A stretch of DNA of 41,932 nucleotides from Akkermansia muciniphila (GTDB taxonomy: Bacteria > Verrucomicrobiota > Verrucomicrobiia > Verrucomicrobiales > V1-33). Of the stretch, positions 21,994 to 38,702 are shown in pieces; within the stretch, counting starts at the first letter, position 1; every line of letters starts with the position of its first letter. The notes below the pieces were generated by a model, which was not told where the DNA came from, did not search any database, and worked only from the letters and a program-made list of their open reading frames with translations. Position numbers and translations under genes: made by a program. The DNA lies in NCBI GenBank assembly GCA_943331195.2, contig CALQKQ020000001.1:1-41932 (forward strand). Direction: 5' to 3'.

Positions 21994-23139
21994 TCAGCGC
22001 CGCACCACCCGGTAAAAACGCCGCGCCGCCGCCCCTAGCAGGACATCCTGCACCTGCCCCGCCCCCGCAGCCGTGGCCACCACTTCCACACCCGTCCGCT
22101 CCCCCACCGCCGCAAAGCTCCCCAACCTCGCCCAGGCTCCCGCCCCCAACTGCGCCGTCGCCTCCACCTCATACGTGGCCCCTGGAGTCGAGCGAAACGC
22201 CAGCGCCACCTGCGGCGGCGCCGCCGCGCGAATGCGCGCCTCCAGCAGTTGCAACTGCGGCGGGTCCGCCGCCACCGGCAGCTCATAGTCCTTCACCACC
22301 GCCTGGTGCTGCATGTTGCTGGCCCCGCTGTCCCCAGCCAGCGCCGGAGCCAACTCCGCGATCGGCTGGTACGTCCGCGTATCTGCCACCAACCCGTTAG
22401 GAAAAACCGATTTCCCCAGCACCGTGGCCGTCTGCAAGGCGTGCCACCCCTTGCCCGCATAGACCGCGTCATAGGGTTTGGCCCGCCCCGCATTCGTATT
22501 CACGTTCCCGAGCCGGTCTGCCGGGTGCGCCGTGCCTATCACCACCAAGGACGAAAGCGTCTCCAAGCAGGCCTCGCTGCGCGTGTCCGTATTGAAATCC
22601 CCCCCAATCACCAAATAATCGCTGCCCCGCGCCCCATTGTTAGCGGCGTAGTAGTCCTTGATGAAACTGGCCAACTGCACCGCCTCGTTGGGCCGCTGGC
22701 TGTCCGTGGTCGGCAAATGCACGCTCACCGCAAGCAGCTCCCGCGCCCCCGGCAGGTCAATCCTCGCCCAGGCAAAGTCCCGCTCCGCCACCGGCGAGGG
22801 CCATTCCCCCGACTCCAACAAGGGATACCGGCTGATGATCCCATTCGGAATGCTCCCCGGCCCTCCCTCCCGGTAATAACTAAACCCCGCCCCAAACGCC
22901 TCGTCCACCAGCGCCCGCACATCCGACACGGAATTTGTTAGGTAGTTGAATTCCTGGATCAAGATGATGTCCGGCTTCAGCCCCTTAAAGATGCGAATGC
23001 CGTGCCCGGGATCGTAGTCTTGGCCGTCCCCGCTCGAAATATTCGCCGCCGCAATGCGGATCCGCTGCCCGAGAGCTGGCCCTGCTCCTAGCAGGGAGCC
23101 CAGCAAAAGCAGTCGCAGGAATGTGGCAGGAAAAGACAT
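21994..23139 (-). CDS. Secreted endonuclease/exonuclease/phosphatase (EEP) family protein with an extra C-terminal ~100-aa domain
   Basis: Signal MSFPATFLRLLLLGSLLGAGPALG. EEP start is RIRIAAANISSGDGQDYDPGHGIRIFKGLKPDIILIQEFNY. Also ...LVIGGDFN... The C-terminal tail ends ...RRFYRVVRR. Confidence 0.8.
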   Translation of the reverse strand: MSFPATFLRLLLLGSLLGAGPALGQRIRIAAANISSGDGQDYDPGHGIRIFKGLKPDIILIQEFNYLTNSVSDVRALVDEAFGAGFSYYREGGPGSIPNGIISRYPLLESGEWPSPVAERDFAWARIDLPGARELLAVSVHLPTTDSQRPNEAVQLASFIKDYYAANNGARGSDYLVIGGDFNTDTRSEACLETLSSLVVIGTAHPADRLGNVNTNAGRAKPYDAVYAGKGWHALQTATVLGKSVFPNGLVADTRTYQPIAELAPALAGDSGASNMQHQAVVKDYELPVAADPPQLQLLEARIRAAAPPQVALAFRSTPGATYEVEATAQLGAGAWARLGSFAAVGERTGVEVVATAAGAGQVQDVLLGAAARRFYRVVRR

Positions 23140-23241
23140 CGTCGAGGGCGCGCCGCAGCATGGCTTTGCCGCCGGAAAGCCCACCCCATCCGCTCGCCCC
23201 CGCCCGCCCGCAAAGGCCAATTTGGCCCAATTCCCCGCCCC

Positions 23242-25305
23242 TCAGGGCCAGGGCACCACCAGCCGCAGCCGGGTTCCCCCGCCCCGCGCCCCCCCAATCT
23301 CCAATCGCCCCCCCAAGGTCGCCGCCCGCTGCCGCATCCCCCTCACCCCCGCCCCCGAGACCGCCGCTCCCGGATCAAAACCGCACCCGTTGTCCTCTAA
23401 CTCCAAAACAAAATGCGCCGCGTCCCCACCCACCCGAACGGAAGCCCGCGTGGCCCCAGCGTGCCGCATCACATTGTGCAGCGCCTCCTTGAACACCAAG
23501 AGTACCTGGCGCTTGAACTCCAGCGGCAACTCCCGCCCCTGCACCGCCGGATCCACCGCAAAGTCGTGTGGCACCGCCGCTAACATCGACGCCGCCGTCT
23601 CCCGCAAGCGCTGCGCCAGATCCCCCAACGTGCGCGTCTCCGGGCGGATCAACCACACAATATCCCGCAGGCTCTCCGTGATCTCCCGCGACAAATGGTT
23701 GATTTCCGTGAAATCCTGACGCGCCTCCTCCGGGTGCGTTCCCTTGGCTCCGGCCATCTGGCTGAGCAAGGCGATCGTCCCCAGCCCACTCCCGATTTCA
23801 TCGTGCACGTCGCGGGCAATCCGCTGGCGCAAGGCCTCCAGCTCGCGCCGCCGCTCCCGCCGGTTGCGCCGCGCCGCCCACCCCAGCCCCAACGCCGCTA
23901 GGCAACTGATCCCCAAACCCCATTCGATGAGGCGGCGCAGCACCCGGCGGCTCAGTTCCTGGCGCCGCTCTGGCAAAGCCGCCCACGCCACCTCCAACTG
24001 CCGCCGCTGCTCCAACCCATCCAGATAGGACGGCCATGCCGCCACCTGCCGCTGGCTCGTAAAACCGTCCGTGAGAAACGCGCTAGACCACCGCGGCGTC
24101 TCCCGACTATCCGATGCCGTAGCCGGACACCCCGCCGCCACGTTCTCCCCCGCGCTGAAGACCTGCAACTCCGCCAAGGCCAACATGTAATCGTTAAATC
24201 GCTCTCCTAATTTCGTCGCCGTCAGCCGAAGGTAACGCGCCCCCAGCCCCGGCACCGCCTGCACCACCGGGTTCTCTAGCGGATTAGCAAAGTCCGCCTT
24301 GCCCGACTCCCCCAACACCACGGGCTCCGCAAAACTCGCCTCGCGGGACGCCTCCAGCCGCCACCGCAGCGGAAACCCAAAACCCCGCCGCGCCGGAAAT
24401 TCCACCGCCCGCGCCGGAAACATCCTCACCTCATCAATCGGGCATTCCTCCCCCAAATCCACCTGCAGCCACTTCACCGCCTGCGCCCCGCGCTCCGCCT
24501 GACTCTGAAATCCCTCCGTGCTCGAGGCCAAGATCCCACTCGGAGCCCCCACCACACTCTGGCTATCCACCAAATTCATCACCGACCAATTCCGCAGCGC
24601 CTCGTCGCTGTCGCTCACCCGCAGCGCCTCCCGCGGCAACCCCGCCGCCACATTCCGCACCCCCTGCAACACCATCAACTCCCCCAGCGCTAATAGACTC
24701 CGCCCATTGCGCCCCCACAGCTTCACCGCCGTCAGCCGCACATACCGCCCGCTCACCGGCTCCTCCGGCACCACCGAGACCGGCCACACCCCAGGATTGG
24801 GAAAATCCGCCCCCGTATAGTCTCCCAGCAACTCCGCTTCTTCAAAAGAAGGGTCGTCCGCCACCTCCACCCGCCAGCGCACCGGAAATCCATAGCCCGC
24901 TCCCGGATCCGCATCGACCGCAAAATCCGCCGGCACCAACACCACGCGGTCGATCCGCTGCTTCGATCCCAAATCCAGCCGAATCATCCGCGTCTCCGGC
25001 ACCCCCCCGCGCTCCGCCGCCAAGCGCGCCCCTCGCCGCACCGAAGACGGCTTGCTCGAATAGCCAATCCGCTCGGTCTGCTGGTCCGGAAACAAACTCG
25101 GCAAGCCCGCCAATTCCTGCTTCATCCGCACCTGCTCCGCCTCCAGCGCCCGCCACTCCGCGCTAAACCACCCGCTAAACCACCCGCTAAACCTCTCGCT
25201 CAACCCACCCTCCCCCACCTGCCCCCGGCAACCTCCAAGCAACGCCAACCCTAGCAAGCCAGCAGCCCGGAGACCTCCCTTCACGCTGCGCCTGCCCGTC
25301 TTCAT
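23242..25305 (-). CDS. Sensor histidine kinase (HisKA_3 + HATPase_c) with two extracytoplasmic discoidin (F5/8 type C)-like domains
   Basis: Lipobox-like LALLGGC. Two repeats end RYVRLTAVKLWGRNGRSLLALGELMVL and RYLRLTATKLGERFNDYMLALAELQVF. One TM (WGLGISCLAALGLGWAA). H-box is RIARDVHDEIGSGLG, followed by NVMRHAGA...DNGCGF...GVRGMRQRA. Confidence 0.85.
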   Translation of the reverse strand: MKTGRRSVKGGLRAAGLLGLALLGGCRGQVGEGGLSERFSGWFSGWFSAEWRALEAEQVRMKQELAGLPSLFPDQQTERIGYSSKPSSVRRGARLAAERGGVPETRMIRLDLGSKQRIDRVVLVPADFAVDADPGAGYGFPVRWRVEVADDPSFEEAELLGDYTGADFPNPGVWPVSVVPEEPVSGRYVRLTAVKLWGRNGRSLLALGELMVLQGVRNVAAGLPREALRVSDSDEALRNWSVMNLVDSQSVVGAPSGILASSTEGFQSQAERGAQAVKWLQVDLGEECPIDEVRMFPARAVEFPARRGFGFPLRWRLEASREASFAEPVVLGESGKADFANPLENPVVQAVPGLGARYLRLTATKLGERFNDYMLALAELQVFSAGENVAAGCPATASDSRETPRWSSAFLTDGFTSQRQVAAWPSYLDGLEQRRQLEVAWAALPERRQELSRRVLRRLIEWGLGISCLAALGLGWAARRNRRERRRELEALRQRIARDVHDEIGSGLGTIALLSQMAGAKGTHPEEARQDFTEINHLSREITESLRDIVWLIRPETRTLGDLAQRLRETAASMLAAVPHDFAVDPAVQGRELPLEFKRQVLLVFKEALHNVMRHAGATRASVRVGGDAAHFVLELEDNGCGFDPGAAVSGAGVRGMRQRAATLGGRLEIGGARGGGTRLRLVVPWP

Positions 25306-25350
25306 GTCATTGAATTTCTCGCGGAAACGTCCCCCGCCTCGCCCCCCGCC

Positions 25351-26016
25351 TCAGCGGCGCTTCACCTCATAGCCTCCCAAATCATAGGAAAACTGGCTAG
25401 CCGGAATCACCGCATTCTCCTGCAATCCGCTGAACACGTTGTTGACCCACGACCCATCCCGCAAATGCACCTGCATCGCCCCCAGCCGGTGCGTCGTCTG
25501 ATGCAGCACCATCACCAACTTGCGCACCGCAAAACTAGCCCCGGGCCCGATCGGCTTCACTTCCAGATTGTCCCAGCCCTCCGCCCCCTTCAAGTCCAGC
25601 ACCTCAAAGCGCTCCAAAAAGGCCTCCAAACTCGCCGGAAACCCCGCCCGCAAAAAAGCAATCCCCTGCCCCGCATCTTCCCGCTCCACCGCCGCTTGGG
25701 AAAACACCTCGGCCGTCTTCTTCGCCGGATAAATCAGAGAAAATTCCTCCTTCGGGTTCATCAAAGCCACCACCTTGGGCGGATCTCCCGCCTGCCACCG
25801 GAAGGCCCCGCCTTGCACAAACCAAAACCGCCCCACGCTCTCCAGCGGCTTCTTCACCGTCCGCAAATGCCGCTCCTGCTTGATGTCGACAATGAAACTT
25901 TTCACCTCCGCCTGCTGCGCAATCCACGCCTTCACCGGTGCCAGGTCCAACTCCGCCCGCAGGGGAACCGCCAGCCCCAACAGAATTCCCGCGATCATCA
26001 ACAATCTGTGCTGCAT
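25351..26016 (-). CDS. LolA-like outer-membrane lipoprotein carrier family protein
   Basis: Signal MQHRLLMIAGILLGLAVPLRA. SFIVDIKQERHLRTVKKPLESVGRFWFVQGGAFRWQAGDPPKVVALMN fits the LolA/LolA-like pattern. Start moved to the MQHR Met. Confidence 0.68.
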   Translation of the reverse strand: MQHRLLMIAGILLGLAVPLRAELDLAPVKAWIAQQAEVKSFIVDIKQERHLRTVKKPLESVGRFWFVQGGAFRWQAGDPPKVVALMNPKEEFSLIYPAKKTAEVFSQAAVEREDAGQGIAFLRAGFPASLEAFLERFEVLDLKGAEGWDNLEVKPIGPGASFAVRKLVMVLHQTTHRLGAMQVHLRDGSWVNNVFSGLQENAVIPASQFSYDLGGYEVKRR

Positions 26017-26101
26017 AGTCTCACGCCTCCGCCAGTTGCCGCCCGCCCGCAAAGGAAAAGGCGCCCCTCCTCCCCTCTACCCCCCCGCCTTCCGCCCTCA
26101 G

Positions 26102-27136
26102 CTACTGCGGCTTGCGAAACCGATAGTGCGAAACAATCCACTCCTCCCCGCCCCGGTAGCCCCACAATTCCGCGCAGGACAAGTAGAACACCCGCCAGTA
26201 GGCCCACCAGCGCTTCGCCTGCCCAGCTCCATAGGTTTGCTCAAAAAGCGGCCAAATCTCCGCGCGGTGCGCATCCATGTTCGCCAGCCACGCATTGCTC
26301 GTCTTCTCATAGTGCTGGCCGCTCACGCACCAGTGATCCTCAATCCGCAAATCCTCCTGAAAATAGAGCAACAAGTCGTCGCTCGGCATCTGCCCACCCG
26401 CAAAAAAATACCGCGTCAACCAATCACTCGGCCCCTTGTCCACATAGTGATAGGCCAACTCCCGGTGCGTGAAAATATGCACAAAAAGCTTGCCGCCCGG
26501 CTGCAACCACGACGCCACCTTGCCGAGCAACTTCTCGTAGTTCTTCATGTGCTCGAACATCTCCACGCTCACCACCCGCTCAAAGCGCTCCCCCGTGTCG
26601 AAGACATTCATATCGCACGTGACCACCTCCAGGTTCCCAAACCCCTTCTCCGCCGCCACCCGATCAATGTGCTCCTTCTGCGTGCGACTATTCGAAACCG
26701 CCGTGATCTGAGCCTTGGGATAGTGCTCCGCCATCCACAGCGACAGCGAACCCCACCCGCAGCCCAGTTCCAAAATGCGCTGCCCATCCGCCAACTCCGC
26801 CCGCGCACACGTCAACCCCAACATGTTTTCCTCAGCCTCATCCAAGCTCACCGTCCCCTCTAACCAGAGCCCCGAACTGTACTTCAGGCGCTTCCCCAAA
26901 CACCTCTGGTAAAAAACCGTCGGCACCTCGTAGTGCTGCTCATTGGCCGCCGCCGTCTGCTCCGCAATCCCTCGCGTCTTCAGATCCGCCACATACGCCA
27001 GCAGCGCCGCGCGCTGCGAAGCCACCTCCGCATGGCCGTGCTCCTTCAAAGTGCCCGCCAGCAAATACCGGATCCCCGCGCGCAACAGCACGTCTGGCAC
27101 CAGGTCGGATTCGATGAGTTTGTCGACATTGATCAT
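26102..27136 (-). CDS. cfa: Cyclopropane-fatty-acyl-phospholipid synthase family SAM-dependent methyltransferase
   Basis: [27 protein letters not shown] motif [17 protein letters not shown], and ...SVEMFEHM... Start moved to the MINVDK Met (27136). Confidence 0.88.
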
Positions 27137-27260
27137 AGAAATATCCCAGGAAAAAAATCCACCCTGCCGCATCCGGGCGCCATTTCCATAGCGGATGCCA
27201 CGCCGCTTTGGATGCCCCTTTTTTCCGCCGCCCCACCACGCGCCCTCCCCCCGCACAATC

Positions 27261-28337
27261 TCAAACCCCCACCGCCACGCGGCGCCGGTCCCGCACCGCA
27301 TCCGCCAAATCCGCCAGCACCGCCTTGGTCGCCTCCCAATCAATGCAAGCATCCGTGATGCTCTGCCCATGCACCAAGGCCTGATTCGGCGTCACGTCCT
27401 GGCGACCCTCCACCAAATAACTCTCTATCATCACTCCCGTGATCGCCTTGTTGCCCGCCCGTATCTGACTAGCCACATCGCCAGCCACCTTGGGCTGATT
27501 CCGATGGTCCTTGTTCGAGTTGCCGTGGGAACAATCAATCATGATCGTCGGCGTCAGCCCCGCCTTTTCCAGCATCGCCGTAACCTCAGCGACGTGCTCC
27601 GGACTGTAGTTAGGCCCAGACTTGCCGCCCCGCAGAATAATGTGGCAAGAATCGTTGCCGCTCGTCTTCACAATCGCCGCCACCCCCTGCTTGGTCACGC
27701 TCAGAAAATGGTGACTCCCCCGCGCCGCCCGAATCGCGTCCAGCGCAATCCCCAACCCGCCGCCCGTCCCATTCTTAAACCCCACCGGCATCGACAAGCC
27801 GCTCGCCAACTCCCGGTGCACCTGGCTCTCCACCGTCCGCGCCCCAATCGCCCCCCACGACACCAGATCCGCCACATACTGCGGACTAATCGCATCCAAA
27901 AACTCCGTCCCCGTCGGAATCCCCATCCCCGTCAGCTTCAACAAGAGGTGCCGCGCCAAATGCAGCCCCCGGTTGATGTCAAAACTCTCGTCCAAACCAG
28001 GATCATTAATATATCCCTTCCACCCCACCGTCGTGCGCGGCTTCTCAAAATAAACCCGCATCACTAACTGCAGCGCATCCCCGTATTTCGCAAACTCCCC
28101 CTGCAACAGCGCCGCATACTCCAGCGCCGCCTTCTCATCGTGTATCGAACACGGCCCCACCACCACCAACAAGCGGTCGTCCCTCCGATGGATAATATCC
28201 TCCGCCTGCGACCGCGCCTTCGTCACAAACGCAATCTCCCGCTCGCTCGGACACAGCTCGCGGATCACCACCTCCGGCGAAACCAAACTCCAAATTTCAG
28301 AAATGCGGACATCGTCAGTGGAGATCTTGGCGGACAT
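27261..28337 (-). CDS. aroG: 3-deoxy-7-phosphoheptulose (DAHP) synthase, class I
   Basis: [38 protein letters not shown] and [13 protein letters not shown]. Which isozyme (F/G/H) cannot be told. Start at the MSAKIS Met. Confidence 0.92.
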
Positions 28338-28360
28338 AGCGAAATAGCGAATAGCTCTTG

Positions 28361-28399
28361 GAAAAAACACAAAGCCGCCCGGCTCAAAAAGCGGGCGGC
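28361..28399 (-). terminator. Intrinsic-terminator-like hairpin + U-tract in the 5' leader of the DAHP synthase gene (candidate attenuator)
   Basis: The - strand reads GCCGCCCG-CTTTTTGAGC-CGGGCGGC-TTTGTGTTTTTTC. That is a perfect 8-bp GC stem and a 10-nt loop. The T-rich tail ends 23 nt before the aroG ATG (28337). No same-strand gene lies upstream of it. Confidence 0.55.
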
Positions 28400-28526
28400 G
28401 CAGGAATTCCCATTTACCAACAGCGCGCCCTCCCTTTCAAGAGAAAATCCCCCGCCTCCCACCGCCCCAGCCCCCACCAGGCTTTCCTCTTGACCCTCCC
28501 AGACCCGACAGCTTAGGAACGGCCAC

Positions 28527-29477
28527 ATGATCAATGTCCTCGTTACCGGTGGGGCCGGATTTATTGGCTCGCACACCGTCGAGCGCCTCCTCGCCCAAGG
28601 TGCCAACGTCACCGTGCTCGATGAATTCAACGACTACTACGACCCCGCCATCAAGCGCGCCAACGTCGCCCCCTTCCAACACCACGCCCGCATCGTCGAA
28701 GGCGACCTCCGCGACCGCGCCACCGTCGACCGCCTCTTCGCCGAAGGAACCTTCGACACCGTCATCCACCTCGCCGCCCGCGCTGGCGTTCGCCCCTCCA
28801 TCGAGGACCCCGCCCTCTACCTCGCCACCAACATCAACGGCACCTTCCACCTCCTCGAAGCCGCTAAGGCCACCGGCGTCCCCCGCTTCGTCTTCGCCAG
28901 CTCCTCCTCCGTCTACGGCATCAACAAAAAAGTCCCCTTCGCCGAAACTGACCGCATCGAGCAAACCATCTCCCCCTACGCCATGACCAAAATGGCCGGA
29001 GAACAAATGTGCTCTAACTACACCAACCTCTACGGCATCCGCAGCGTCTGCCTCCGCTTCTTCACCGTCTACGGCCCCCGCCAACGCCCCGACCTCGCCA
29101 TCTCCAAGTTCACCCGCCTCATCGACCTCGGCCTCCCCGTCCCCCGCTACGGCGACGGCAGCACCGCCCGCGACTACACCTTCATCGAAGACATCGTCGA
29201 CGGCATCCTCGCCGCCGCCCGCTACCAAGGCGACCTCTTCGACATCTTCAACCTCGGCGGCTCCCAGACCACCACCCTAGCCGGCCTCATCGCCGCCGTC
29301 GAAACCGCCCTCGGCAAGACCGCCCTCATCCAAGACCTCCCCCTCCAGCCCGGCGACGTCCCCATCACCTACGCCGACGTCGCCAAAGCCCAGCGCCTCC
29401 TCGGCTACACCCCGCACACCCCCATCCAAGAGGGCATTCCCAAATACGTCCAGTGGTATCAGCAGCGCCAAAAATAG
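28527..29477 (+). CDS. NAD-dependent epimerase/dehydratase (SDR; UDP-glucuronate 4-epimerase-like)
   Basis: MINVLVTGGAGFIGSHTVERLL (Rossmann GxxGxxG), the catalytic SPYAMTKMAGE (YxxxK), and ...FRFFTVYGPRQRPD. Confidence 0.9.
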   Translation: MINVLVTGGAGFIGSHTVERLLAQGANVTVLDEFNDYYDPAIKRANVAPFQHHARIVEGDLRDRATVDRLFAEGTFDTVIHLAARAGVRPSIEDPALYLATNINGTFHLLEAAKATGVPRFVFASSSSVYGINKKVPFAETDRIEQTISPYAMTKMAGEQMCSNYTNLYGIRSVCLRFFTVYGPRQRPDLAISKFTRLIDLGLPVPRYGDGSTARDYTFIEDIVDGILAAARYQGDLFDIFNLGGSQTTTLAGLIAAVETALGKTALIQDLPLQPGDVPITYADVAKAQRLLGYTPHTPIQEGIPKYVQWYQQRQK

Positions 29478-29589
29478 CCCCCCGCCCCCACGCCTGAAAA
29501 ACCACCAACCAAATCCTCTTGCAATTAGAGACATCCCGTTTTACGTCCCGCTCCCCGTTCCGGGACCACTCTGTAACACCGATTAATTT

Positions 29590-29694
29590 ATGGGATCGCT
29601 CAAAAAAAGGAGAAAGACCAAGATCAACAAGCATAAGCGCAAAAAGCGCATGCGTGCCAACCGGCACAAGAAGCGCTTGCGCTACAAGTCCTAG
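29590..29694 (+). CDS. Small basic protein, bS22-like (AURKAIP1/COX24-domain type) candidate ribosomal protein
   Basis: A 34-codon ORF below the track cut-off: MGSLKKRRKTKINKHKRKKRMRANRHKKRLRYKS*. It matches the MGS-[VL]-x-KKRRK...KHK...RH pattern of the small 30S protein bS22. It sits in a 410-bp gap and is followed by a hairpin. Confidence 0.65.
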   Translation: MGSLKKRRKTKINKHKRKKRMRANRHKKRLRYKS

Positions 29695-29801
29695 TCCCCT
29701 CGCCTCGGTGGCGCGGAACCCACGGCTTCGCCTCGCGCAGCCCACCTTCCTCTCCCCGTCGCAGGACTGGCTACCCGCCTAAGCTTCACCTCTCAATCCA
29801 A

Positions 29802-29842
29802 GGTCCACGCAGCTGCCCCTCCGGCATCTCCGTGGACCTTTG
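29802..29842 (+). terminator. Hairpin + TTTG downstream of the small basic ORF (weak terminator candidate)
   Basis: GGTCCACG (29802-29809) pairs with CGTGGACC (29831-29838) across a 21-nt loop, followed by TTTG. Confidence 0.3.
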
Positions 29843-29886
29843 TCGTGCCCCCATCGCTCCTTTCCTGCCCCCTCCTCCCTTCCCCC

Positions 29887-30684
29887 ATGCCCGAACTCGC
29901 CGAAGTCGCCTTCTACGCCAAAGCCTGGCACCCCGCTCAGGGCCAAACCATCCTCCGCGTCCACACCGGCCCCAAACCCCGCTTCTTCCGCCACACCCCC
30001 GCCGCCGCCTTCGCCCCAGCCCTCACCGGTCGCTCCTTCCTCGACACCCGCACCCACGGCAAAAAACTCCTCTTCGCCTTCCAAAACAACCTCTGGCTCA
30101 CCGGACACCTCGGCATGACCGGCGAACTCCTCCTCGCCCCCCCCGATCACCTCCCCACAGCCCACGACCACCTCGTCCTCTACACCGCCCACCACGCCCT
30201 CATCTTCCGCGATTCCCGCATGTTTGGCGCCGTCCTCCTCGATGAATCCCCCGGCCCTCCCCCCGCCTGGCAGGCCCTCCCCCCCGAAATCCTCAGCCCC
30301 CAATTCACCGCCGCCCACGCCGCCGCCGCCCTCCAGCGCCACCCCCGCAGCCCCCTCAAAGCCTTCCTCCTCGACCAAACCTACTTCCCCGGCATCGGCA
30401 ACTGGATGGCCGACGAAGTCCTCTTCCAACTCCGCCTCCACCCCGCCACCCTCGCCGCTTCCGTCAACCCCAGCGCCCTCCGCCAAGCCCTCCGCACCAT
30501 CTGCCAAAAATCCCTCCAGACCATCGCCGTCAATTGGTCCGATCCCCCCAAAAACTGGCTCATGACCCACCGCTGGAAAGCCGGCGGCCTCTGCCCCCGC
30601 TGCCACACCCCCCTCCTCCGCGACACCCTGCGCGGTCGCACCGCCTGCTGGTGCCCCACCTGCCAACCACAGTCTCCTCCCTAA
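29887..30684 (+). CDS. mutM: Formamidopyrimidine-DNA glycosylase (Fpg/Nei family)
   Basis: N-terminal MPELAEV, an H2TH region (IGNWMADEVLFQLRLHP), and the C-terminal zinc finger CPRCHTPLLRDTLRGRTACWCPTCQ. Start moved to the MPELAEV Met. Confidence 0.88.
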   Translation: MPELAEVAFYAKAWHPAQGQTILRVHTGPKPRFFRHTPAAAFAPALTGRSFLDTRTHGKKLLFAFQNNLWLTGHLGMTGELLLAPPDHLPTAHDHLVLYTAHHALIFRDSRMFGAVLLDESPGPPPAWQALPPEILSPQFTAAHAAAALQRHPRSPLKAFLLDQTYFPGIGNWMADEVLFQLRLHPATLAASVNPSALRQALRTICQKSLQTIAVNWSDPPKNWLMTHRWKAGGLCPRCHTPLLRDTLRGRTACWCPTCQPQSPP

Positions 30685-30780
30685 CACGAGTTGCCAATAA
30701 ACCTAAAAACGGGAGTCGAAACTCGACCACGGGGCCTTTTTCATGATAAGTGCAGACCATAGGCGGTTTTTTGCGGCTCT

Positions 30781-30816
30781 GGACACTCACCCTTTGGGTG
30801 AGTCCTTCCTGTTGTC
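30781..30816 (+). terminator. Hairpin + T-rich tail about 100 nt after fpg (weak terminator candidate)
   Basis: ACTCACCC-TTT-GGGTGAGT is an 8-bp stem, extended by GG/CC across a 2-nt bulge. It is followed by TTCCTGTTGTC. Confidence 0.35.
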
Positions 30817-30955
30817 AAAAGCCCCCAGCCAAATCGTGGCCGGTGGACACGCCCGGCGGCCGGGTGCACCCCAAATGGGGTCATGATGCGCCCATGACCA
30901 GGGAGGGTTCACTGAGGTTTTTCCCGCTTTATAGCAAGGCTGGGATGCTGGCGCC

Positions 30956-30977
30956 GTCGGCCTCAGGCCGACCCTAC
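30956..30977 (-). repeat. GTAG-headed palindrome (second REP-like type)
   Basis: The - strand reads GTAG-G-GTCGGCC-TGA-GGCCGAC (7-bp stem, 3-nt loop). The layout matches the 6112-6252 elements. Confidence 0.4.
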
Positions 30978-31000
30978 AGGGCGTAACTTCCTTTGCTGCT

Positions 31001-31024
31001 AAAAAAACCAGGGCCTCGCCCTGG
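31001..31024 (-). terminator. Rho-independent terminator (minus strand)
   Basis: The - strand reads CCAGGGC-GAG-GCCCTGG followed by TTTTTTT. It lies 196 nt downstream of the RluE-like stop. Confidence 0.65.
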
Positions 31025-31219
31025 GTGCGAAGGGCAAGGCCCTGGGGGGCGATGTCGACAAATGATTGGGGTGACCCTGCGAGTGGAACCGAAGGGCCAC
31101 GCCAAAGGGCACCATCGAGCCAACTCCCGCTTCTAGGGTAAGCGAGCCGGAGGTGATAGATTTTTTCGGCTAGAGTGCACCGCCTTGACCCGACAAAGCA
31201 CCTGATCGCGGCGGCGGGC

Positions 31220-31789
31220 TCAGGCTTGGCGCAAGACCAGGTCGCGCTCTGCGGCGCTGAGTTCTCGCCAAGATCCGGCCGGGAGGTCTGCGGGGCGAAA
31301 GCCGCCAATGGCGCTGCGGATCAGCCGCAAGGTGGGGTGGCCCACGGCGGCGGTCATGCGGCGTACTTGGCGGTTGCGCCCCTCGATCAGGCGCAGTTCT
31401 AGCCAACAATCCGGCACATTCTTGCGAAAACGCACCGGGGGAATCCGCGGGGCGTGCTCGGGCGGCGGATCGAGCCGCCGCACGTTGCAGGGCAAGGTGG
31501 GTCGCCCTTCCAAGACGACGCCGCGGGCCAATTGGGCCAGGGCGGCCTCCGCGGGGACGCGCTCCACGAGCACTTCGTAGATGCGAGGATGAGCCCCCTG
31601 GGGATTGAGCAGGCGGTCGACCCAGGCCCGCTCATTGGTCAACAGCAGCAGGCCTTCGGAATCGCGGTCCAAGCGCCCGATCGGATAAACTTCTTTGGGT
31701 AGCCCGAATTCCGCCAGGGTGCGCTGTCCGGGCAACTCCGGAGTGAATTGGCTCAAGACATCGTAGGGCTTATTCAGGGCGATCAGCAT
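31220..31789 (-). CDS. rluE: RsuA/RluE-family pseudouridine synthase (no S4 domain; RluE-like)
   Basis: MLIALNKPYDVLSQF..., catalytic PIGRLDRDSEGLLLLTN, and EGRNRQVRRMTAAVGHP. Start moved to the MLIALNK Met. Confidence 0.87.
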   Translation of the reverse strand: MLIALNKPYDVLSQFTPELPGQRTLAEFGLPKEVYPIGRLDRDSEGLLLLTNERAWVDRLLNPQGAHPRIYEVLVERVPAEAALAQLARGVVLEGRPTLPCNVRRLDPPPEHAPRIPPVRFRKNVPDCWLELRLIEGRNRQVRRMTAAVGHPTLRLIRSAIGGFRPADLPAGSWRELSAAERDLVLRQA

Positions 31790-31852
31790 CAGGATTTCAT
31801 AAGCCCGACGCCCGGCCCGCCGCAAGCCCGTCCGCAGCGGCGGGGGCTGCCC

Positions 31853-33046
31853 TCACACGGTTTTGGCATTCTGTTGGCCTAACACCCGCTTGTAAAGCTC
31901 CTGGCGCACCGCTTCGAGGCCTTCGCCGGTTTCGGCGGAAATGGGCAGGATCTTCACTTTGGGGAAACGCTGCTTGAAGTGCTTGAGGTTTTCTGCGGCT
32001 TCGGGAAGGTCCATTTTATTGGCAATGACGAGCCACGGCCGCTTCGCTAGGATGGGATCGTACAGCGAAATTTCCTGGCGCAGCGTGGCCACGTCTTCGC
32101 AGGGGTCGCGCACTTCCGAGCCCGCCATGTCGACGACAAAGAGGAGGAGGTGGCAGCGCAGAATGTGGCGGAGAAACTCGAAGCCTAGCCCGACGTTTTC
32201 GTGGGCCCCCTCGATCAAGCCGGGGATATCGGCGACGGTGACGCGTTGGTAGCCTTCGTATTCGATGACGCCCACCATGGGGTGGAGGGTGGTGAAGCGG
32301 TAGGGAGCCACCTTGGGCTTGGCGGCGCTCAATTTGCCGAGCAGCGAACTCTTTCCGGCGTTGGGAAAGCCGACCAAGCCGGCGTCGGCGATTTGGCGCA
32401 GTTCAAAATAAAACATGCCCTCTTCGCCCTTCACGCCGGGAGTGAACTCGGTGGGGGCGCGGTGGGTGGAGGTTTTGAAATGGACATTGCCCTTCCCTCC
32501 CTTGCCTCCTTTGCAGAGCACGAAGGTTTCGCCGACCTTAGTTAGGTCCGCCACTAGCTCTAGCTCGACTCCTTCATCTAGGCGCTGCTTCAGGGTCCGC
32601 TTGCGGCTCGCAGCTTCGGCGGCGGCGTCCTCGTCGCTGCCCGGCTCGAAAATATCGGACTCATCCGCTTCATCCTCGACCAAAAAATCCCCGCCCTCGG
32701 GCAGGGCGGGCGGCAGATCCGTTGGGTTAGGGGGCTCGGCCGACCACGACGCGTCGCGGTAAATCAGAGTGCCGGGGGGCACCGTGATGACGAGGTCTGG
32801 GGCGGACTTTCCAAAGCATTGGCGCCCCGTCCCGTTGCCGCCGTGGGGGGCGTGCACCTTGGGATTGAAGAAGAAGGCCTTGAGATTGCTGGTGTTGGAA
32901 TCGACCCGGACAATGATGTCGGCGCCCTTCCCCCCGTCGCCGCCGTCGGGGCCTCCGAGCGGGTTGAATTTCCCGCGGTAAAAGTGCGCAGAGCCGTCCC
33001 CGCCATTGCCGGCCCGGGCGTGGATTTTGATGTTGTCGACAAACAT
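31853..33046 (-). CDS. obg: GTPase Obg/CgtA
   Basis: MFVDNIKIHARAGNGGDGSAHFYRGKFNPLGGPDGGDGGKG (Obg fold), G1 GFPNAGKSSLL and G3 DIPGLIEGA. The N-terminal domain contains an acidic insertion of about 65 aa. Confidence 0.95.
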   Translation of the reverse strand: MFVDNIKIHARAGNGGDGSAHFYRGKFNPLGGPDGGDGGKGADIIVRVDSNTSNLKAFFFNPKVHAPHGGNGTGRQCFGKSAPDLVITVPPGTLIYRDASWSAEPPNPTDLPPALPEGGDFLVEDEADESDIFEPGSDEDAAAEAASRKRTLKQRLDEGVELELVADLTKVGETFVLCKGGKGGKGNVHFKTSTHRAPTEFTPGVKGEEGMFYFELRQIADAGLVGFPNAGKSSLLGKLSAAKPKVAPYRFTTLHPMVGVIEYEGYQRVTVADIPGLIEGAHENVGLGFEFLRHILRCHLLLFVVDMAGSEVRDPCEDVATLRQEISLYDPILAKRPWLVIANKMDLPEAAENLKHFKQRFPKVKILPISAETGEGLEAVRQELYKRVLGQQNAKTV

Positions 33047-33251: not shown

Positions 33252-36062
33252 TTATTTGGCGATGACGTAGCGGGAATCGAGCAACTTGGTGACGCGCGCC
33301 GCGTTTTCGCGGAAGTGAGCGCGGCTGTAGGCGTCGACATTTTGCTGGGCGGCCCCGGCGGTGAGGCGCTCGCGCAATTCCGCCAATTGTCCGGCGGCGA
33401 GGTCGCTGATGGGCTTGGCAGCAGGGCCGGCGCCGAGCTTGTTATTGGCCAAATCAATCAGGCGCTCGATGTGCTCGCGCTGCAGGTTGCGGCGCAGGCT
33501 ACTCACCAGCGGGCTGCGGTCGGTGTAGGCCTTGGCGGGATCGATCTGGCCGATTTCGGACCAAGCGGCTTCGTAGACGGCCTTGAGCACTTCGGGCAAG
33601 GTCACGGCGTCTTCGTTGGCGGCGGTGCGGAACTCGTTGTCGTAAACCCGCGCCAAGGTCACCGGATTGAGCAGCGAGGTCATGGCGGCGGCCTGAATTC
33701 CGAGCACCTTGTCGTGGACGGGCCAGGTCGGTTCATCGAATTGGTTTTGCATGTCCCACCATTTGTCGATGGTGAGGTACTTGAGCAAATCCGGGGTCAG
33801 GCCATAAGCTTCATCGTGGAAGGTGTTTTGGAGCACGAAGGCCATGGCCTTGCGCTGAGTGTCGGCGGCCACCGGCACCACCGGAGCGGTGGCGTTAGGA
33901 TCACCCTTGCGGGCCCGGTTCACGTAGGAGCCTCCCAGCCAGTTGGACATCATGGTGACGGCCTGGACTTGGGTGAGGAGGGTCAGTTGATAGCCGCGGC
34001 GGGCTTTGGACCAGGATTCGCCATCCTTGACGAACTTGTCGAGCAGCTTGGCGCGAGTGGCCTTGGCCAGGGCGATCTGATTTTCGGCATAGGCGAGGGG
34101 GTCCTTGGCAAAATCGTAGCGCCGCGCCCGCGGGTCGGGTCCGCCGGTGTCTTCGTCGGTGCCGTAGATCAACTGCGGCTCGGCGGCGCGGGCCAGAATG
34201 GGCTTGAGTTCCTTTTCGAAGGTGTAGCCGTATTCGATGGCCCACTCGTCGTAGACGCCGACGCTGTGCATGCCGTAGTCGCCTTGGGAGCGATCTTTGC
34301 CCGCCACCACGTTGACGGGGATGTAGTCCATCACCGAACCGGCGAAGGCCTTCTTGCCTTTCATGGCGTCGCTGTTGATCTCGCTGTAGTCGAAGATGCT
34401 AGAGGCTTTGAAGTTGTGGCGCAGCCCGAGGGTGTGACCGACTTCGTGAACTACGAGATTTGCTAGGAGCGGTCCAATGAAGGACTCGGGGATGCCATCG
34501 ACGATTTGGGCCCCGGGTTCGGCGGCGGCTTCGGACAAGGTGAGGGCCATGTCCATCAAGGCGACTCCGTGGGCCATCCAATTAGCTGCCTGGCAGAAGC
34601 CATTGAATTGGCTGGCGCGGTTTGCCAGGCCATCGAATTCGCTGCGTCCGACGAGCGGACCGTTGGCCCGGGCCGTGGCAATGGCGTGGCCTCCGAGGAG
34701 GGGGATGGGCTCGCGGGAGACGCGGTCAACCAAGTTGGCGCGCAACTCTGGCGCGGCCAGGCGCACTCGCGGATCCCACTGGGGATTGCTGTGGAGCCAG
34801 GTGAGCATTTCGGGCCCGGCACCATCCATGGCGATTTGGGGGATGACGTCGTTATACTGTTTCCACCAGTGGCGGATCCAGCCGTCGGTCAGGATGATGT
34901 CGGCGTCGAGAATTTGTCCGGTGAGGGGGTGCACCCGGCTGGGCCCGATCGCGGTACCGGCTCCGTTCGAAAGCCAGCGAATGAAATTGTAGTTTACGTC
35001 CTCGGGGTCCTTATCCATATGCTCGCCGCTGGCGGCGTCTTGGAAGCGGACTTCGATGGCATTGATCAAGCCGACTTTTTCGAAGGCCCGATTCCACATC
35101 ATGAGGCCTTCTTGGACCCAGCGGCGGTAGCGGATCGGCGTGGTGTGCTCGACGTAAAAGATGATGGGATTTTTCGGCGGGCTCAGCTTGAGGGAGGGGT
35201 CGGCTTTTTCCAAGTGCCAGCGGTTGATGAAGCGCACCTGGGTTTCCTCGGGGGTGAACTTGCCGAAGTCGGAGTAGCTCGTCGTGAAATAGCCGATGCG
35301 CTCGTCGGCGAGGCGCGGTTGATAGCCGGTGTTGTCAGGAATCAAGCTGAAGCTAAAGTGGAACGTGCGCAGTTTCCCTTCTCCGGTGGGGCCTTCGACA
35401 GCGATTTCGATATTGCTCGGAAAAGCCTTGGCGCTTTTGATGGTGTAAATGCCCCGATTGAGGCCCCGGGCTTCTCCGCCGAAGAATTTCTCGGCGTGCT
35501 GCACGACCAATTCATCCAAGTCGATCACGGGTCCGCCCTGGGGGATTTGGGTGACGATGGGGATATCTAAAATCACGCGGTCGGTAAACAGGCGCTTGAT
35601 GGAATCCTGCGAGGCCTTGTCTCCGGTGGAGCGAATTTCCAAGCTCGGGGTGACCATGGCCAAGCGCTTGCCGTAGTTTTTCCAATAGAAATAGACTTCT
35701 CCCGCCTGGAGTCCGGCATAGTCATCGCCGCTAGCCACAGTTAGGGCGAGGTAGTGTTTTTGGCCGGCGTAGGCGGCAGGCAATTCCGCTAACAACTGCT
35801 GATCTTTGCCGCGGCTCCACACGTTGTAAAAGCTCTTTCGGCCGTCCGCCGTGGAAACCACCTTTTCGTAGCCTTGGAGCACCTCTTCGGGCCGAGGGAA
35901 ATCTGGCTCGGGTGGTTTGGCTGGCCCCCCTACCCCGCCGGGAATCGTAGTTGGTCCGCTAGGCACAGGCCCCGGCGGCCCCAGCAGGGGATTTTGCGCG
36001 CAGGCCAGCGTCGCCGTCAGGGCCATCATCGCCAGAGAGAGGAGGGGAGGTCGGTTTTTCAT
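33252..36062 (-). CDS. Secreted zinc-dependent metalloprotease (DUF4953/DUF5117-type family)
   Basis: Signal MKNRPPLLSLAMMALTATLACA. The zinc site is VVHEVGHTLGLRHNF (HExxHxxGxxH). The 936-aa size and layout fit the large zinc-dependent metalloprotease family common in Bacteroidota and PVC bacteria. Confidence 0.85.
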   Translation of the reverse strand: MKNRPPLLSLAMMALTATLACAQNPLLGPPGPVPSGPTTIPGGVGGPAKPPEPDFPRPEEVLQGYEKVVSTADGRKSFYNVWSRGKDQQLLAELPAAYAGQKHYLALTVASGDDYAGLQAGEVYFYWKNYGKRLAMVTPSLEIRSTGDKASQDSIKRLFTDRVILDIPIVTQIPQGGPVIDLDELVVQHAEKFFGGEARGLNRGIYTIKSAKAFPSNIEIAVEGPTGEGKLRTFHFSFSLIPDNTGYQPRLADERIGYFTTSYSDFGKFTPEETQVRFINRWHLEKADPSLKLSPPKNPIIFYVEHTTPIRYRRWVQEGLMMWNRAFEKVGLINAIEVRFQDAASGEHMDKDPEDVNYNFIRWLSNGAGTAIGPSRVHPLTGQILDADIILTDGWIRHWWKQYNDVIPQIAMDGAGPEMLTWLHSNPQWDPRVRLAAPELRANLVDRVSREPIPLLGGHAIATARANGPLVGRSEFDGLANRASQFNGFCQAANWMAHGVALMDMALTLSEAAAEPGAQIVDGIPESFIGPLLANLVVHEVGHTLGLRHNFKASSIFDYSEINSDAMKGKKAFAGSVMDYIPVNVVAGKDRSQGDYGMHSVGVYDEWAIEYGYTFEKELKPILARAAEPQLIYGTDEDTGGPDPRARRYDFAKDPLAYAENQIALAKATRAKLLDKFVKDGESWSKARRGYQLTLLTQVQAVTMMSNWLGGSYVNRARKGDPNATAPVVPVAADTQRKAMAFVLQNTFHDEAYGLTPDLLKYLTIDKWWDMQNQFDEPTWPVHDKVLGIQAAAMTSLLNPVTLARVYDNEFRTAANEDAVTLPEVLKAVYEAAWSEIGQIDPAKAYTDRSPLVSSLRRNLQREHIERLIDLANNKLGAGPAAKPISDLAAGQLAELRERLTAGAAQQNVDAYSRAHFRENAARVTKLLDSRYVIAK

Positions 36063-36086
36063 GAAGTGTGTCGCCGGTGGAGGCGG

Positions 36087-36137
36087 AATATTTTATGAGG
36101 ATAATAATAACTATGGAAAACACAACGACAAAATGAC
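36087..36137. promoter_or_regulatory. AT-rich island in the divergent promoter region (metalloprotease <-> NPCBM/dehydrogenase-like gene)
   Basis: aatattttatgaggataataataactatggaaaacacaacgacaaaatgac is the most AT-rich ~50 nt in the window. It lies 25-75 nt upstream of the ATG at 36062. No clear -35/-10 pair could be assigned. Confidence 0.3.
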
Positions 36138-36284
36138 TTGCCCTCTGGATTGGACGGGAGGCCGGACCGGGGCGGTGTTTTCTGGGGCGGGCGGCGGGGA
36201 GGCCGCCGAGGCAAACTTTCTCCGATATGCGGCACCGCCGGCCGCGTTTATTTGCCGTCTTTTTGCTTTGCTCCCGACCTCGCT

Positions 36285-38702
36285 ATGAAACCAACTCTCA
36301 TCCTCTCGCTCGCTGCCTTCCCTGCCTTGCTGCACGCGGCCCCGGCCAAGCCCGCCTTCGCCAGCCACCGCCTCACCGCGGAAACCGTCGGGCACAGCGT
36401 GGAAATCAAAGCCGATCTCACCGGCGCGAAAAAGCTCTATCTCGTGGTCAGCGACGGCGGCGATGGCTTGGTGGCCGACTGGACGAACTGGGTCAATCCG
36501 ACGCTGAAGGGCTCCTACGGTTCCCGCTCCCTGACGGAACTCAAGCCGGTGAAGGTGGAAACGGGCTGGGGTCAAGTGGGCCTCAACCGCAACGCCAATG
36601 GCCAGCCGATGTCGATCAGCGGCAAAACGGGCGGGTTAGGCTTCGGGGTTCACGCCCCCTCGGTGCTGGAATTTGACCTCCCTGAGGGGACTTCCTCCTT
36701 CGAAGCCCTCGGCGCGCTCGACGATGGCGGGGTGAGCCAAAATGCGGGCTCCACCGTGGAATTCAAAGTCTACACCCAAGCGCCTCCCGCTTCCGCGAAG
36801 CCCAACGGCGGCGGCGGACTCGATCCCGATGCTGCCCTGGCGGGCCTCACGCCGGGGGATGGCCTCCAAGTCGATACCTTCGCGGCGGAGCCGATGCTGC
36901 TGAGCCCGTCTTCCATCGACGTCGACCACCTCGGCCGGGTTTATGTGGCGGAAATCGTCAACTACCGCGGCCACGCCGGCAAACGCCCGTCCGGCGATCG
37001 CATCCTCGTCCTTGAAGATACCAATAAAGACGGCCAGGCCGACAAACAGAGCGTCTTTTTTGAAAGCCCGGACATCATCTCGCCCCACGGCGTCACTGTG
37101 TTAGGCAACAAAGTCATCGTCTCTGCGAGCGGCAAGGTTTTTGTCCTCACGGACGACAACGGCGACCTCAAGGCCGACCGCAGCGAAGTCCTCTTCAGCG
37201 GGATTCACGGCGCGCAGCACGACCACAGCATCCACGCCTTCCACTTCGGTCCCGACGGAAAATACTACTTTAACTTCGGCAACGAAGGCACCGAGCTGAA
37301 GGACAAAGACGGCAAGCCAGTCGTCGACCAAGTCGGCAACACCATCACCGGCTCGGGCCATCCCTACCGCCAAGGCATGATCTTCCGCTGCGACCCGGAC
37401 GGCAGCCACGTGGAAACGCTAGCTTGGAATTTCCGCAACAATTGGGAAGTGGCCGTCGACAGCTTTGGTGCCCTTTGGCAAAGCGACAACGACGACGACG
37501 GCAATCAGTCGGTGCGCATCAACTTCGTCATGCCCTATGGCAACTACGGCTACACCGACGAACTCACCGGTGCCGGTTGGTCCAAGGGCGACGCCAAGAC
37601 CAAAGAAGAAGTCATCAGCCGCCACTGGCACCTGAGCGACCCCGGAGTGGTCCCCAATCTGCTCAACACCGGCGGCGGCAGCCCCACCGGCATCTTGGTC
37701 TATGAAGGCGACCTCCTCCCCCCCGTTTTCCGGAACCAAATCATCCACTGCGACGCCGGTCCCAACATCGTGCGCGCTTACCCCGTGACTCCCCATGGAG
37801 CCGGCTACTCCGCCGAATCTGTCAGGATCCTTGAAGGCACCAGCGACAAGTGGTTCCGCCCCTCCGATGTCAACGTGGCCCCGGACGGCTCCCTCATCGT
37901 GGCCGATTGGTATGATCCCGGTGTCGGCGGCCACGCCATGGGCGACCTCGACCACGGCCGCCTCTACCGGGTTACCCCCACGGGCCACCAGGGTTATACC
38001 AACCCCACCTTCGACCTCACCACTGCGGAGGGTGCCGCAGCCGCGCTGTCCAATCCTAACGAGGCCACGCGCTATCTGGGCTACACCGCCCTCAAAGCCA
38101 TGGGCGAAAAAGCGGCTCCGGCCCTGCAAGCGCTCGCCGCCCAGGCCAACCCGCGCCTCCAAGCCCGCGCCCTCTGGCTGCTCGCGCAGTTGCCCGGCAA
38201 AGCCGAAGCCACCGTACAAGCCGCCCTCGGCAGCAAGAATGCCGACCTCCGCGCCATGGGCCTCCGCCTCGGATTGGAGCACGGCATGGACGCCGCCCAA
38301 CTGGTCGCCAAACTGGTCAAAGACCCCTCCGCGGCGGTGCGCCGCGAGGCCGCCATCGCCCTCCGCTTCAGCAAAGCCCCCCAAGCCCCCGCCCTCTGGG
38401 CCGCCCTCGCCCAGCAACACGACGGCCAGGACCGCTGGTATCTCGAAGCCCTCGGCATCGGCGCCGCCCTGCAGTGGGACGCCTGCCTCGACGCCTATCT
38501 CCAGGCCGTGCCCCATCCCGAAACCACCCCAAGCGGGCGCGACGTGATCTGGCGCAGCCGGGCCAAAGCCAGCGCCGCCCTCCTCGCCAAAATCGTCAAA
38601 GACGCCTCCCTCCCCGAGGCCGAAAAAGACCGCTACATGCGCGCCTTCGACTACCAACCCACTGCCGAAAAAGACCGGGCCCTCGAAAGCCTTCTCCAGT
38701 AA
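36285..38702 (+). CDS. NPCBM-like domain + PVC membrane-bound-dehydrogenase-like beta-propeller + HEAT repeats (no cytochrome c domain)
   Basis: Signal MKPTLILSLAAFPALLHA. The NPCBM/NEW2-like segment is KKLYLVVSDGGDGLVADWTNWVNPTL...GWGQVGLNRNANGQPMSISGKT...GFGVHAPSVLEFDL...STVEFKVY. The propeller start LQVDTFAAEPMLLSPSSIDVDHLGRVYVAEIVNYRGH is paralogous to the 2469-5054 gene. HEAT-like repeats follow (ANPRLQARALWLL, DPSAAVRREAAIALR). The gene ends without CxxCH. Confidence 0.8.
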   Translation: MKPTLILSLAAFPALLHAAPAKPAFASHRLTAETVGHSVEIKADLTGAKKLYLVVSDGGDGLVADWTNWVNPTLKGSYGSRSLTELKPVKVETGWGQVGLNRNANGQPMSISGKTGGLGFGVHAPSVLEFDLPEGTSSFEALGALDDGGVSQNAGSTVEFKVYTQAPPASAKPNGGGGLDPDAALAGLTPGDGLQVDTFAAEPMLLSPSSIDVDHLGRVYVAEIVNYRGHAGKRPSGDRILVLEDTNKDGQADKQSVFFESPDIISPHGVTVLGNKVIVSASGKVFVLTDDNGDLKADRSEVLFSGIHGAQHDHSIHAFHFGPDGKYYFNFGNEGTELKDKDGKPVVDQVGNTITGSGHPYRQGMIFRCDPDGSHVETLAWNFRNNWEVAVDSFGALWQSDNDDDGNQSVRINFVMPYGNYGYTDELTGAGWSKGDAKTKEEVISRHWHLSDPGVVPNLLNTGGGSPTGILVYEGDLLPPVFRNQIIHCDAGPNIVRAYPVTPHGAGYSAESVRILEGTSDKWFRPSDVNVAPDGSLIVADWYDPGVGGHAMGDLDHGRLYRVTPTGHQGYTNPTFDLTTAEGAAAALSNPNEATRYLGYTALKAMGEKAAPALQALAAQANPRLQARALWLLAQLPGKAEATVQAALGSKNADLRAMGLRLGLEHGMDAAQLVAKLVKDPSAAVRREAAIALRFSKAPQAPALWAALAQQHDGQDRWYLEALGIGAALQWDACLDAYLQAVPHPETTPSGRDVIWRSRAKASAALLAKIVKDASLPEAEKDRYMRAFDYQPTAEKDRALESLLQ

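Follow-up and report, generated by a model that had tools for sequence, protein, structure and literature searches.

A sharp strand-composition step downstream of fpg in a freshwater Verrucomicrobiales genome probably marks a lineage-specific rearrangement seam

Local GC skew has been used to flag inverted genes and segments (Merrikh & Merrikh 2018, PMC6220195), skew-based inversion calls have in turn been criticized (Liu & Zhang 2022, PMC9098844), and the landscapes of inversions have been surveyed (Repar & Warnecke 2017, PMC5850607). The junction described here is of a known kind, a skew discontinuity at a rearrangement seam; what is unusual about it is the magnitude of the asymmetry, the neutral state of the moved block and the rapid G/C turnover that separates the sister species.

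The stretch analysed, hereafter the window, comprises 41,932 nucleotides; an Obg-based scan assigned its uncultured species to a freshwater Verrucomicrobiales lineage, and our analysis covered ∼60 kb of that species' genome. Base-level analysis of the window gave a mean plus-strand GC skew of −0.29 to the left of ∼30.7 kb and +0.035 to the right of it. Expressed as mean (G−C)/N, the two sides are −0.187 and +0.022, with ∼23 standard errors between them. A two-segment least-squares fit placed the change point at 30,687–30,710, directly 3′ of the fpg stop codon (30,684). The skew step is real and sharp. An initial annotation of this DNA had proposed an abrupt switch at ∼31 kb from G/C hand counts of five single lines; all five counts were exact on recount, and both the change-point fit and the skew profile bear the switch out. 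The same annotation called the right side G-rich, and here it was wrong, the sign of the small right-hand skew following gene orientation. The step is no mirror flip: a skewed block meets an unskewed block.

The left block (1–30,684) runs from hisG to fpg and holds 20 genes in both orientations, identified by Pfam; its plus strand is C/A-rich and its minus strand G/T-rich. Local skew in this block ranges from −0.07 to −0.56, and plus-strand skew is −0.07 to −0.50 per gene and −0.23 to −0.48 between genes, so that the plus strand is C-rich whichever way the genes point, as first proposed, and in intergenic DNA as well. The last gene of the block, fpg (29,887–30,684, plus strand; Fapy-DNA glycosylase/H2TH by Pfam), has a coding skew of −0.50 and a third-position skew of −0.83. 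As a measure of the strand effect on each gene we took R, the logit of third-position G/C after correction for coding-strand bias, and obtained values of about −0.96 to −2.0 in all 20 left genes. Third-position skew on the plus strand was −0.68 to −0.83 in plus-strand genes and −0.16 to −0.59 in minus-strand genes, and the Ala codons GCC and GCG were used 407 and 12 times, respectively, in the former compared with 107 and 461 times in the latter. In this chromosome, G/C odds at third codon positions differ about four-fold from one DNA strand to the other, independently of gene orientation. The left-arm data show a true strand effect on top of a weaker C-rich coding-strand bias; this bias is found in every gene of the window and also in near relatives. 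Synonymous choice had been said to flip across the junction; the flip in fact lies between plus- and minus-strand genes inside the left arm.

Beyond fpg the strand effect is absent. The right block begins at 30,685 and has R of about 0 to the end of the window at 41,932 and, in same-species contigs, to window-equivalent ∼47.4 kb. Its coding strands are C-rich in both orientations (plus-strand skew of +0.05 to +0.12 in minus-strand genes and −0.15 in the plus-strand NPCBM gene, which had already been noted as breaking the uniformity of this arm), and because of this the plus strand is mildly G-rich only under minus-strand genes. GCC is preferred over GCG ∼3:1 in either orientation, with acyP/HD at 24/24. 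R lies between −0.4 and +0.16 for most right-arm genes and is ∼+0.55 for HD. A same-species contig, L087, reached through an acyP look-up, adds 10 kb on the right and brings the unskewed stretch to at least 16.7 kb; its fit gave R = −0.06 with c = −0.68, uniform over about 11 genes. The next genes, ABC1 and TetR (window-equivalent 47.6–49.6 kb), look left-arm-like again, with R of about −1.0 and −1.3 (c = −0.64). The partial N-terminus of the MFS-acyltransferase, used as a query for homologues, gave no match that would carry the sequence rightward beyond L087, nor did a 26-mer scan of JGI metagenomes for an extension of the window. An ABC1-based scan returned more distant relatives only, in which TetR and ABC1 are kept together and never adjoin GSDH.

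The first genes of the right block are an rluE-like pseudouridine synthase (31,220–31,825, minus strand; PF00849), the obg GTPase (31,853–33,046, minus strand; Pfam) and, within 33,252–38,702, a minus-strand DUF5117/DUF4953 metalloprotease-like gene and a plus-strand NPCBM/DUF7133 gene, both named by Pfam. The unit rluE-obg-DUF5117-NPCBM, 7.5 kb long, shows synteny with the closest relative (contig L007) and with contig L011, and the obg-rluE pair is kept in L007, L009, L010, L011 and L013. The unskewed zone as a whole is made of two synteny blocks and includes the single-copy core genes obg, pyrD and purC. Between fpg and the rluE-like gene lies a convergent spacer of 535 bp (30,685–31,219) with right-block composition (skew +0.04, GC 0.60). 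It contains a strong intrinsic terminator on the minus strand (31,008–31,045; a 15-pair stem followed by T7), which presumably ends rluE-obg transcription, and hairpin prediction found a weaker terminator-like hairpin on the plus strand downstream of fpg (30,785–30,803).

The closest relative, here called the sister, is the MAG GCA_947460575.1, represented by contigs L093, L098–L101 and L007 (the obg block); its Obg protein is 94% identical to that of the window, compared with 83–91% for other relatives. Window positions 19,003–30,668 are collinear with a sister contig, the order NTP-transferase, PrsW, PQQ, histidine kinase, LolA, CMAS, aroG, epimerase and fpg being kept in L093 (also L098–L101). 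In the sister, fpg is followed not by rluE but by convergent genes for a ketoacyl synthase (KAS), a thioesterase (4HBT) and DLH, and the skew, −0.3 to −0.45, passes through the 3′ end of fpg without a break. The convergent KAS/fpg pair recurs in L097, which is more distantly related (fpg 72% and KAS 69% identical). Therefore, the fpg/KAS arrangement is ancestral and the fpg/rluE adjacency is derived.

In alignments with the sister and with outgroups, L097 among them, fpg homology stops after the CWCPxCQP zinc-finger motif, at ∼30,668–30,670, and the C-terminal tails of fpg differ in every species. The distance from the end of homology to the skew change point is 20–40 bp, and the alignment and the change-point fit jointly define an interval of 30,669–30,710 that most likely contains the rearrangement breakpoint. 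The initial annotation had offered an inversion breakpoint as one reading of the step. It stands as a rearrangement junction, since collinearity with the sister is broken here at fpg, the fpg/KAS order is ancestral and the sister has no step; the data do not show a simple recent inversion, for the right block has R of about 0, where mirror skew would give about +1.5, and its genes are oriented so that ancestral skew should have been kept.

The window species' own KAS block was found on contigs L095/L096, where KAS is followed by AP_endonuc_2/PPDK and skew is strong on both sides. Judging from this block, strong skew appears to be general in the genome, with the right block standing out as exceptional. 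AP_endonuc_2/PPDK adjoins rluE in no relative examined, and the spacer at the KAS junction has no sequence in common with the fpg/rluE spacer. Searches for repeats and IS elements at the junction or flanking the block gave chance-level repeats only, and no inverted repeats above chance flank the unskewed block. Gene order around obg-rluE is different in every close relative, and mosaic skew was also seen in L008, L009, L011, L012 and the sister's L098.

We next compared the right block with its counterpart in the sister. There, on L007, NPCBM-DUF5117-obg carries full skew: R is about 1.3–1.8 and obg lies on the G-rich strand. The coding skew of obg at 4-fold sites is −0.43 in the window and +0.45 in the sister. 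At shared 4-fold sites, read on the window's plus strand, G in the window faces C in the sister 75 times in obg, 136 times in DUF5117 and 78 times in NPCBM, and the reverse was found 5, 4 and 11 times, respectively. Likewise, T in the window faces C in the sister at 63 right-block sites, with 10 in reverse. Both biases hold in either gene orientation. The background 4-fold divergence from the sister (transitions and other transversions) is 13–17% on the right and 11–20% in eight left-arm genes, and the right block appears, from these comparisons, to stand at the same distance from the sister as the left arm. Swaps between G and C dominate synonymous change, in the left arm too; there the G/C differences from the sister go both ways (68 vs 189). 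One strand-specific process has all the same moved about one third of the right block's synonymous sites; the predominance of G/C swaps would be expected if strong GC-favouring fixation leaves them as the main neutral channel.

Polymorphism among same-species contigs was less consistent. Right-arm SNPs polarised by minor allele run towards negative skew (74 vs 41), those polarised by the sister run in the opposite direction (22 vs 42), and those polarised by both majority and outgroup are balanced, with 16 decreasing skew and 17 increasing it. The direction tests disagree, and homoplasy and possible introgression limit what they can tell. At 33 of the 88 block SNPs the minor allele is the sister's allele. 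Parsimony polarisation of the G/C changes with L011 as outgroup was suggestive and was set aside as unreliable given parallel pressure in L007 and L011. One contig, L091, is a mosaic, being 99.5–100% sister-type up to ∼37,155 and 99–100% window-type beyond.

Taken together, we think it likely that the step is a lineage-specific rearrangement seam at which a block with extreme skew was joined to a block whose strand effect has been erased. By the usual rule the G/T-rich strand is the leading strand. The left block represents the strongly skewed state, on this reading a skew equilibrium, with its minus strand G/T-rich, and a rearrangement at the end of fpg, specific to this lineage, would have joined it to the spacer and to rluE-obg-DUF5117-NPCBM and onwards. 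The step would then be the seam between chromosome pieces with different replication-strand histories. We infer that, for part of the period after the two species parted, the right block may have lain the other way round with respect to replication, owing to at least one inversion, and that strong strand-specific pressure would have shifted its skew from a sister-like value to about zero, where it may have been caught in transit.

Transit after one or more inversions is the cause of the skew loss that we favour, import from a low-skew congener coming second. The transit model carries a cost. The obg gene and its neighbours lie on the strand that is G-rich in the left arm, so that a single polarity-preserving join should have kept sister-like skew; because such skew was not kept, the model needs at least two events or a changed fork direction. 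A flip and re-flip, that is two events, is plausible given the fluid gene order and the recurrent mosaic skew. An R of −0.06, uniform over ∼16.7 kb and two synteny blocks, would moreover be a coincidence under transit and is expected at equilibrium.

Import would mean that the right block, from the spacer to about GSDH (∼16.7 kb), was recombined in from a closely related low-skew species; the donor genome would then account for its lack of strand effect, and the step would be where the imported DNA begins. Congeners with little skew are known (R is about 0 to 0.2 in L010, L012/L094 and L013), the return of skew at ABC1/TetR may make the block an island, and the L091 mosaic and the sister's alleles among the minor alleles of block SNPs would fit between-species exchange in this region. 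We nonetheless regard import as unlikely. Background divergence from the sister is alike on both sides of the junction, and in Obg no other relative comes as close as the sister; mobility genes, tRNA and flanking repeats are all absent; the zone consists of two synteny blocks with core genes; and L091 may itself be a metagenome assembly chimera. A distant donor is not supported by the divergence and nearest-neighbour tests, and an unsampled close donor may be the form of import that these sequence comparisons would accommodate.

Equilibrium offers a different account of the same flatness: the right block would be replicated both ways about equally, either through frequent flips or between polar fork barriers. 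The uniformity of R across about 11 genes and the balance of the doubly polarised new mutations (16 vs 17) speak for it. We consider it very unlikely, no mechanism fitting the flanks: there are no inverted repeats around the block and no alternative junction in the contigs fetched, the polarity of the left flank is wrong for a termination zone and the far-right genes seem to agree in sign with that flank, the block has no dif-like site, and the sister's orthologous block is fully skewed. A replication terminus (dif region) at the junction was likewise rejected, the polarity being opposite and no XerCD dif site lying near the skew change; the sole dif-like match in the window has 3 mismatches and is at 6972–6992, far from the skew changes.

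Highly improbable, in our judgement, is a related reading in which the junction is a replication boundary, whether a polar fork barrier or an initiation site that is recently acquired or used part of the time, with the left side always replicated leftwards and the right side both ways and so held at a zero-skew equilibrium. If true, composition would directly reveal a secondary or facultative origin in a bacterial chromosome.

The other reading offered by the initial annotation was that the spacer is a replication origin. As a functional chromosomal origin, classical or newly acquired, with a right arm that is turning G-rich, it has some points in its favour: the change from negative to non-negative skew has origin polarity, the cumulative-skew minimum within the window is at 30,835, and the right block has shifted relative to the sister towards plus-strand G and T, as if now replicated rightwards. 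Degenerate TTGTCCACA-like 9-mers are also weakly enriched in the spacer, with six sites at up to 2 mismatches compared with a mean of 1.05 per 535 bp. However, the spacer has no perfect TTGTCCACA box and a single 1-mismatch site (31,053–31,061, minus strand), and TTATCCACA with at most one mismatch has 4 matches in the window, where 2.55 are expected by chance, and 0 in the spacer. The two 7/9 DnaA-like 9-mers noted earlier are indeed present at 30,842–30,850 and 30,778–30,786, and they form no cluster of boxes. No AT-rich DNA unwinding element was found in the spacer, where no 40-mer falls below a GC of 0.42; the window's AT-richest 40-mer, with GC 0.23, lies outside it at 36,086.

Other properties of the locus also argue against an origin. 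The flanking genes are convergent and no dnaA or dnaN is nearby, as had been recognized from the start: a terminator lies between the genes, and Pfam annotation of genes over the first ∼50 kb turned up neither dnaA nor dnaN. None of the relatives has the spacer, the right arm stays flat at zero over at least 16.7 kb before turning negative again at ABC1/TetR, and the minor-allele SNP flux is towards negative skew. We give the origin reading hardly any weight: a replication origin at the junction is not supported, the skew seam is most probably not where forks diverge, and the site is not to be annotated as an origin.

The spacer had been described as comparatively AT-rich, and it is slightly GC-poor only (0.60 vs 0.64). 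It had been described as packed with hairpins, and it folds marginally better than shuffled sequences (z = −1.75), mostly on account of the one strong terminator. Nor is it clearly the longest non-coding stretch of the window, since 6028–7069 and 12,560–13,097 are as long or longer. A crude ORF caller reported possible genes in both of these stretches. Scanning against Rfam, at gathering thresholds for the window and permissively for the spacer, returned only a chance miRNA match on the terminator hairpin, no tRNA or tmRNA was found in the spacer, and its ORFs are low-complexity, overlapping ones, none of them convincing. The spacer sequence has no copy elsewhere in the fetched DNA and no counterpart in any relative. 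It contains a 15-nt inverted pair (30,702–30,716 and 31,123–31,137), and a MITE or repeat identity was considered on that account and rejected, there being no second copy of the spacer in the fetched DNA.

That the junction is an assembly chimera of co-occurring high-skew and low-skew genomes is unlikely and in our view scarcely credible, for although closely related species share samples (L102, from a KAVA23-1 sample, is sister-type) and L091 looks like a chimera or recombinant of two species, the junction is crossed collinearly and base for base, besides the window itself, by five separate contigs of the same species (99.3–99.7% identity; metagenome assemblies and MAGs of several samples), a sixth ends within the spacer, no contig fetched shows another junction partner, no repeat is common to the junction and any other locus, and the window species' KAS block is assembled separately beside other genes, as expected if fpg lost that neighbour.

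With the rearrangement seam as the preferred reading, the lineage-level asymmetry is a more useful result than the junction. In fits of R at Verrucomicrobiota loci, |R| was 1.2–1.5 in the window species, the sister and L019/L020, and ∼0.6 or less in the other fitted lineages. To our knowledge, the asymmetry here, with whole-sequence skew of −0.3 to −0.5 and third-position skew to −0.83, is well above any in bacteria, and a search of the library available to us found no description of extreme skew in freshwater Verrucomicrobiales. Synonymous codon choice is fully inverted from plus- to minus-strand genes, and the asymmetry evolves fast: in orthologous blocks of the sister species, with proteins 91–96% identical, G and C are swapped at about one third of 4-fold sites. 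Mosaic skew together with fluid gene order could help to establish the age and direction of rearrangements and how quickly strand bias re-equilibrates. Genomes of this sort often change skew sign locally, and such changes are unreliable predictors of origins.

Compared with known systems, the junction resembles oriC in its change from negative to non-negative sign and in having a local cumulative-skew minimum in an intergenic region. Unlike oriC, it has no box cluster, AT-rich element, linkage to dnaA/dnaN, conservation or mirror skew, and its flanks are convergent with a terminator. The right block resembles horizontally acquired genomic islands in being a sharp-edged block of differing composition, here in the strand effect; it differs from them in having the same G+C content (0.63 vs 0.64), no integrase, tRNA or direct repeats, core housekeeping genes, and a divergence from the sister equal to that of the flanking DNA. 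The closest likeness in kind is to skew discontinuities at inversion breakpoints, which share the sharp change of composition with a break in collinearity and have sides that differ in replication-strand history. Here, in contrast, the moved block is neutral rather than mirrored, in an orientation whose genes should have preserved the ancestral skew, and the asymmetry is far stronger, with turnover by G/C exchange rather than by transitions.

Within the strongly strand-skewed block to the left of the step (window positions 1–30,684), gene orientation reverses synonymous codon preference inside a single 30-kb stretch. Counted over all genes of this block, + strand genes used the alanine codons GCC and GCG in the ratio 407/12 and − strand genes in the ratio 107/461; the corresponding counts were 198/3 versus 58/157 for threonine ACC/ACG and 238/12 versus 128/284 for glycine GGC/GGG. 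Besides the spacer at the step, two other long stretches have no Pfam-supported gene; both lie in the same block, at 6,028–7,069 (1,042 bp) and 12,560–13,097 (538 bp). A GC3-based ORF caller placed a candidate at 6,560–6,955 (+ strand) in the former and at 12,572–13,087 (− strand) in the latter, suggesting that both contain unannotated genes.

To the right of the step, where the strand effect is about nil, acyP and the HD gene (40,167–41,537, + strand) were outliers. Their third-position skew was +0.39 and −0.05, respectively, compared with about −0.45 for other + strand genes, which implies a locally positive strand effect in this interval; the two genes are possibly an additional small block with a separate history.

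The AT-richest stretch of the window (36,086–36,130; 40-mer GC of 0.23) lies in the divergent intergenic region between the DUF5117 and NPCBM genes and is overlapped by a DnaA-like 9-mer with one mismatch (TTATCCTCA, 36,096–36,104). This stretch is probably merely a divergent promoter region. A weak dif-like match (GCACAATGTTTGTTCTGTAAA, 6,972–6,992, − strand), also intergenic, has three mismatches to a proteobacterial-type core; matches of this quality arise in 5% of shuffles, and no skew change was found at the site.

We also compared the spacer between the KAS (ketoacyl synthase) gene and AP_endonuc_2 in two contigs of the window species, L095 (3406–4176) and L096 (3406–3793), and found that they differ by a tandem duplication of ∼384 bp. 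This spacer may be the site of the reciprocal junction; it has no sequence in common with the spacer of the window.

Scaffold_13951 of ENA ERZ28593089 (L091) is a mosaic of sister-type followed by window-type sequence: its left part, equivalent to window positions 34,776–37,155, is 99.5–100% identical to the sister species (contig L007) and just 76–88% identical to the window, and from ∼37,156 onward it is 99–100% window-type, with the switch point within the NPCBM gene. Either this scaffold records genuine recombination between species, or two species that occur together were joined into a chimera during metagenome assembly. Six SNPs cluster at 36,264–36,323, around the initial codons of NPCBM and the small ORF that precedes this gene; two further contigs (L001 and L004) have sister-species alleles there, and the cluster resembles either a short tract of conversion or an ancestral haplotype that has been retained.

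The sister species has a skew step of its own in contig L098 (1–3,389 versus 3,454 onward), 6.6 kb past KAS. The strand effect at third codon positions (R; logit, corrected for coding-strand bias) was ∼+0.2 in its 1,628-residue DUF7133-containing gene and +0.6 to +2.1 in every later gene. Because similar mosaics were also found in contigs L008, L009, L011, and L012, skew steps look common in the clade of the window. In a distant lineage, represented by two Verrucomicrobiaceae MAGs (L019 and L020, Obg ∼58% identical), R was ∼−1.4 to −1.5 over 21 kb, a strand effect as strong as that in the window. There, the C-rich strand carries 11 of 14 to 16 genes, obg among them, so that the relation between genes and strand is the reverse of that in the window's clade.
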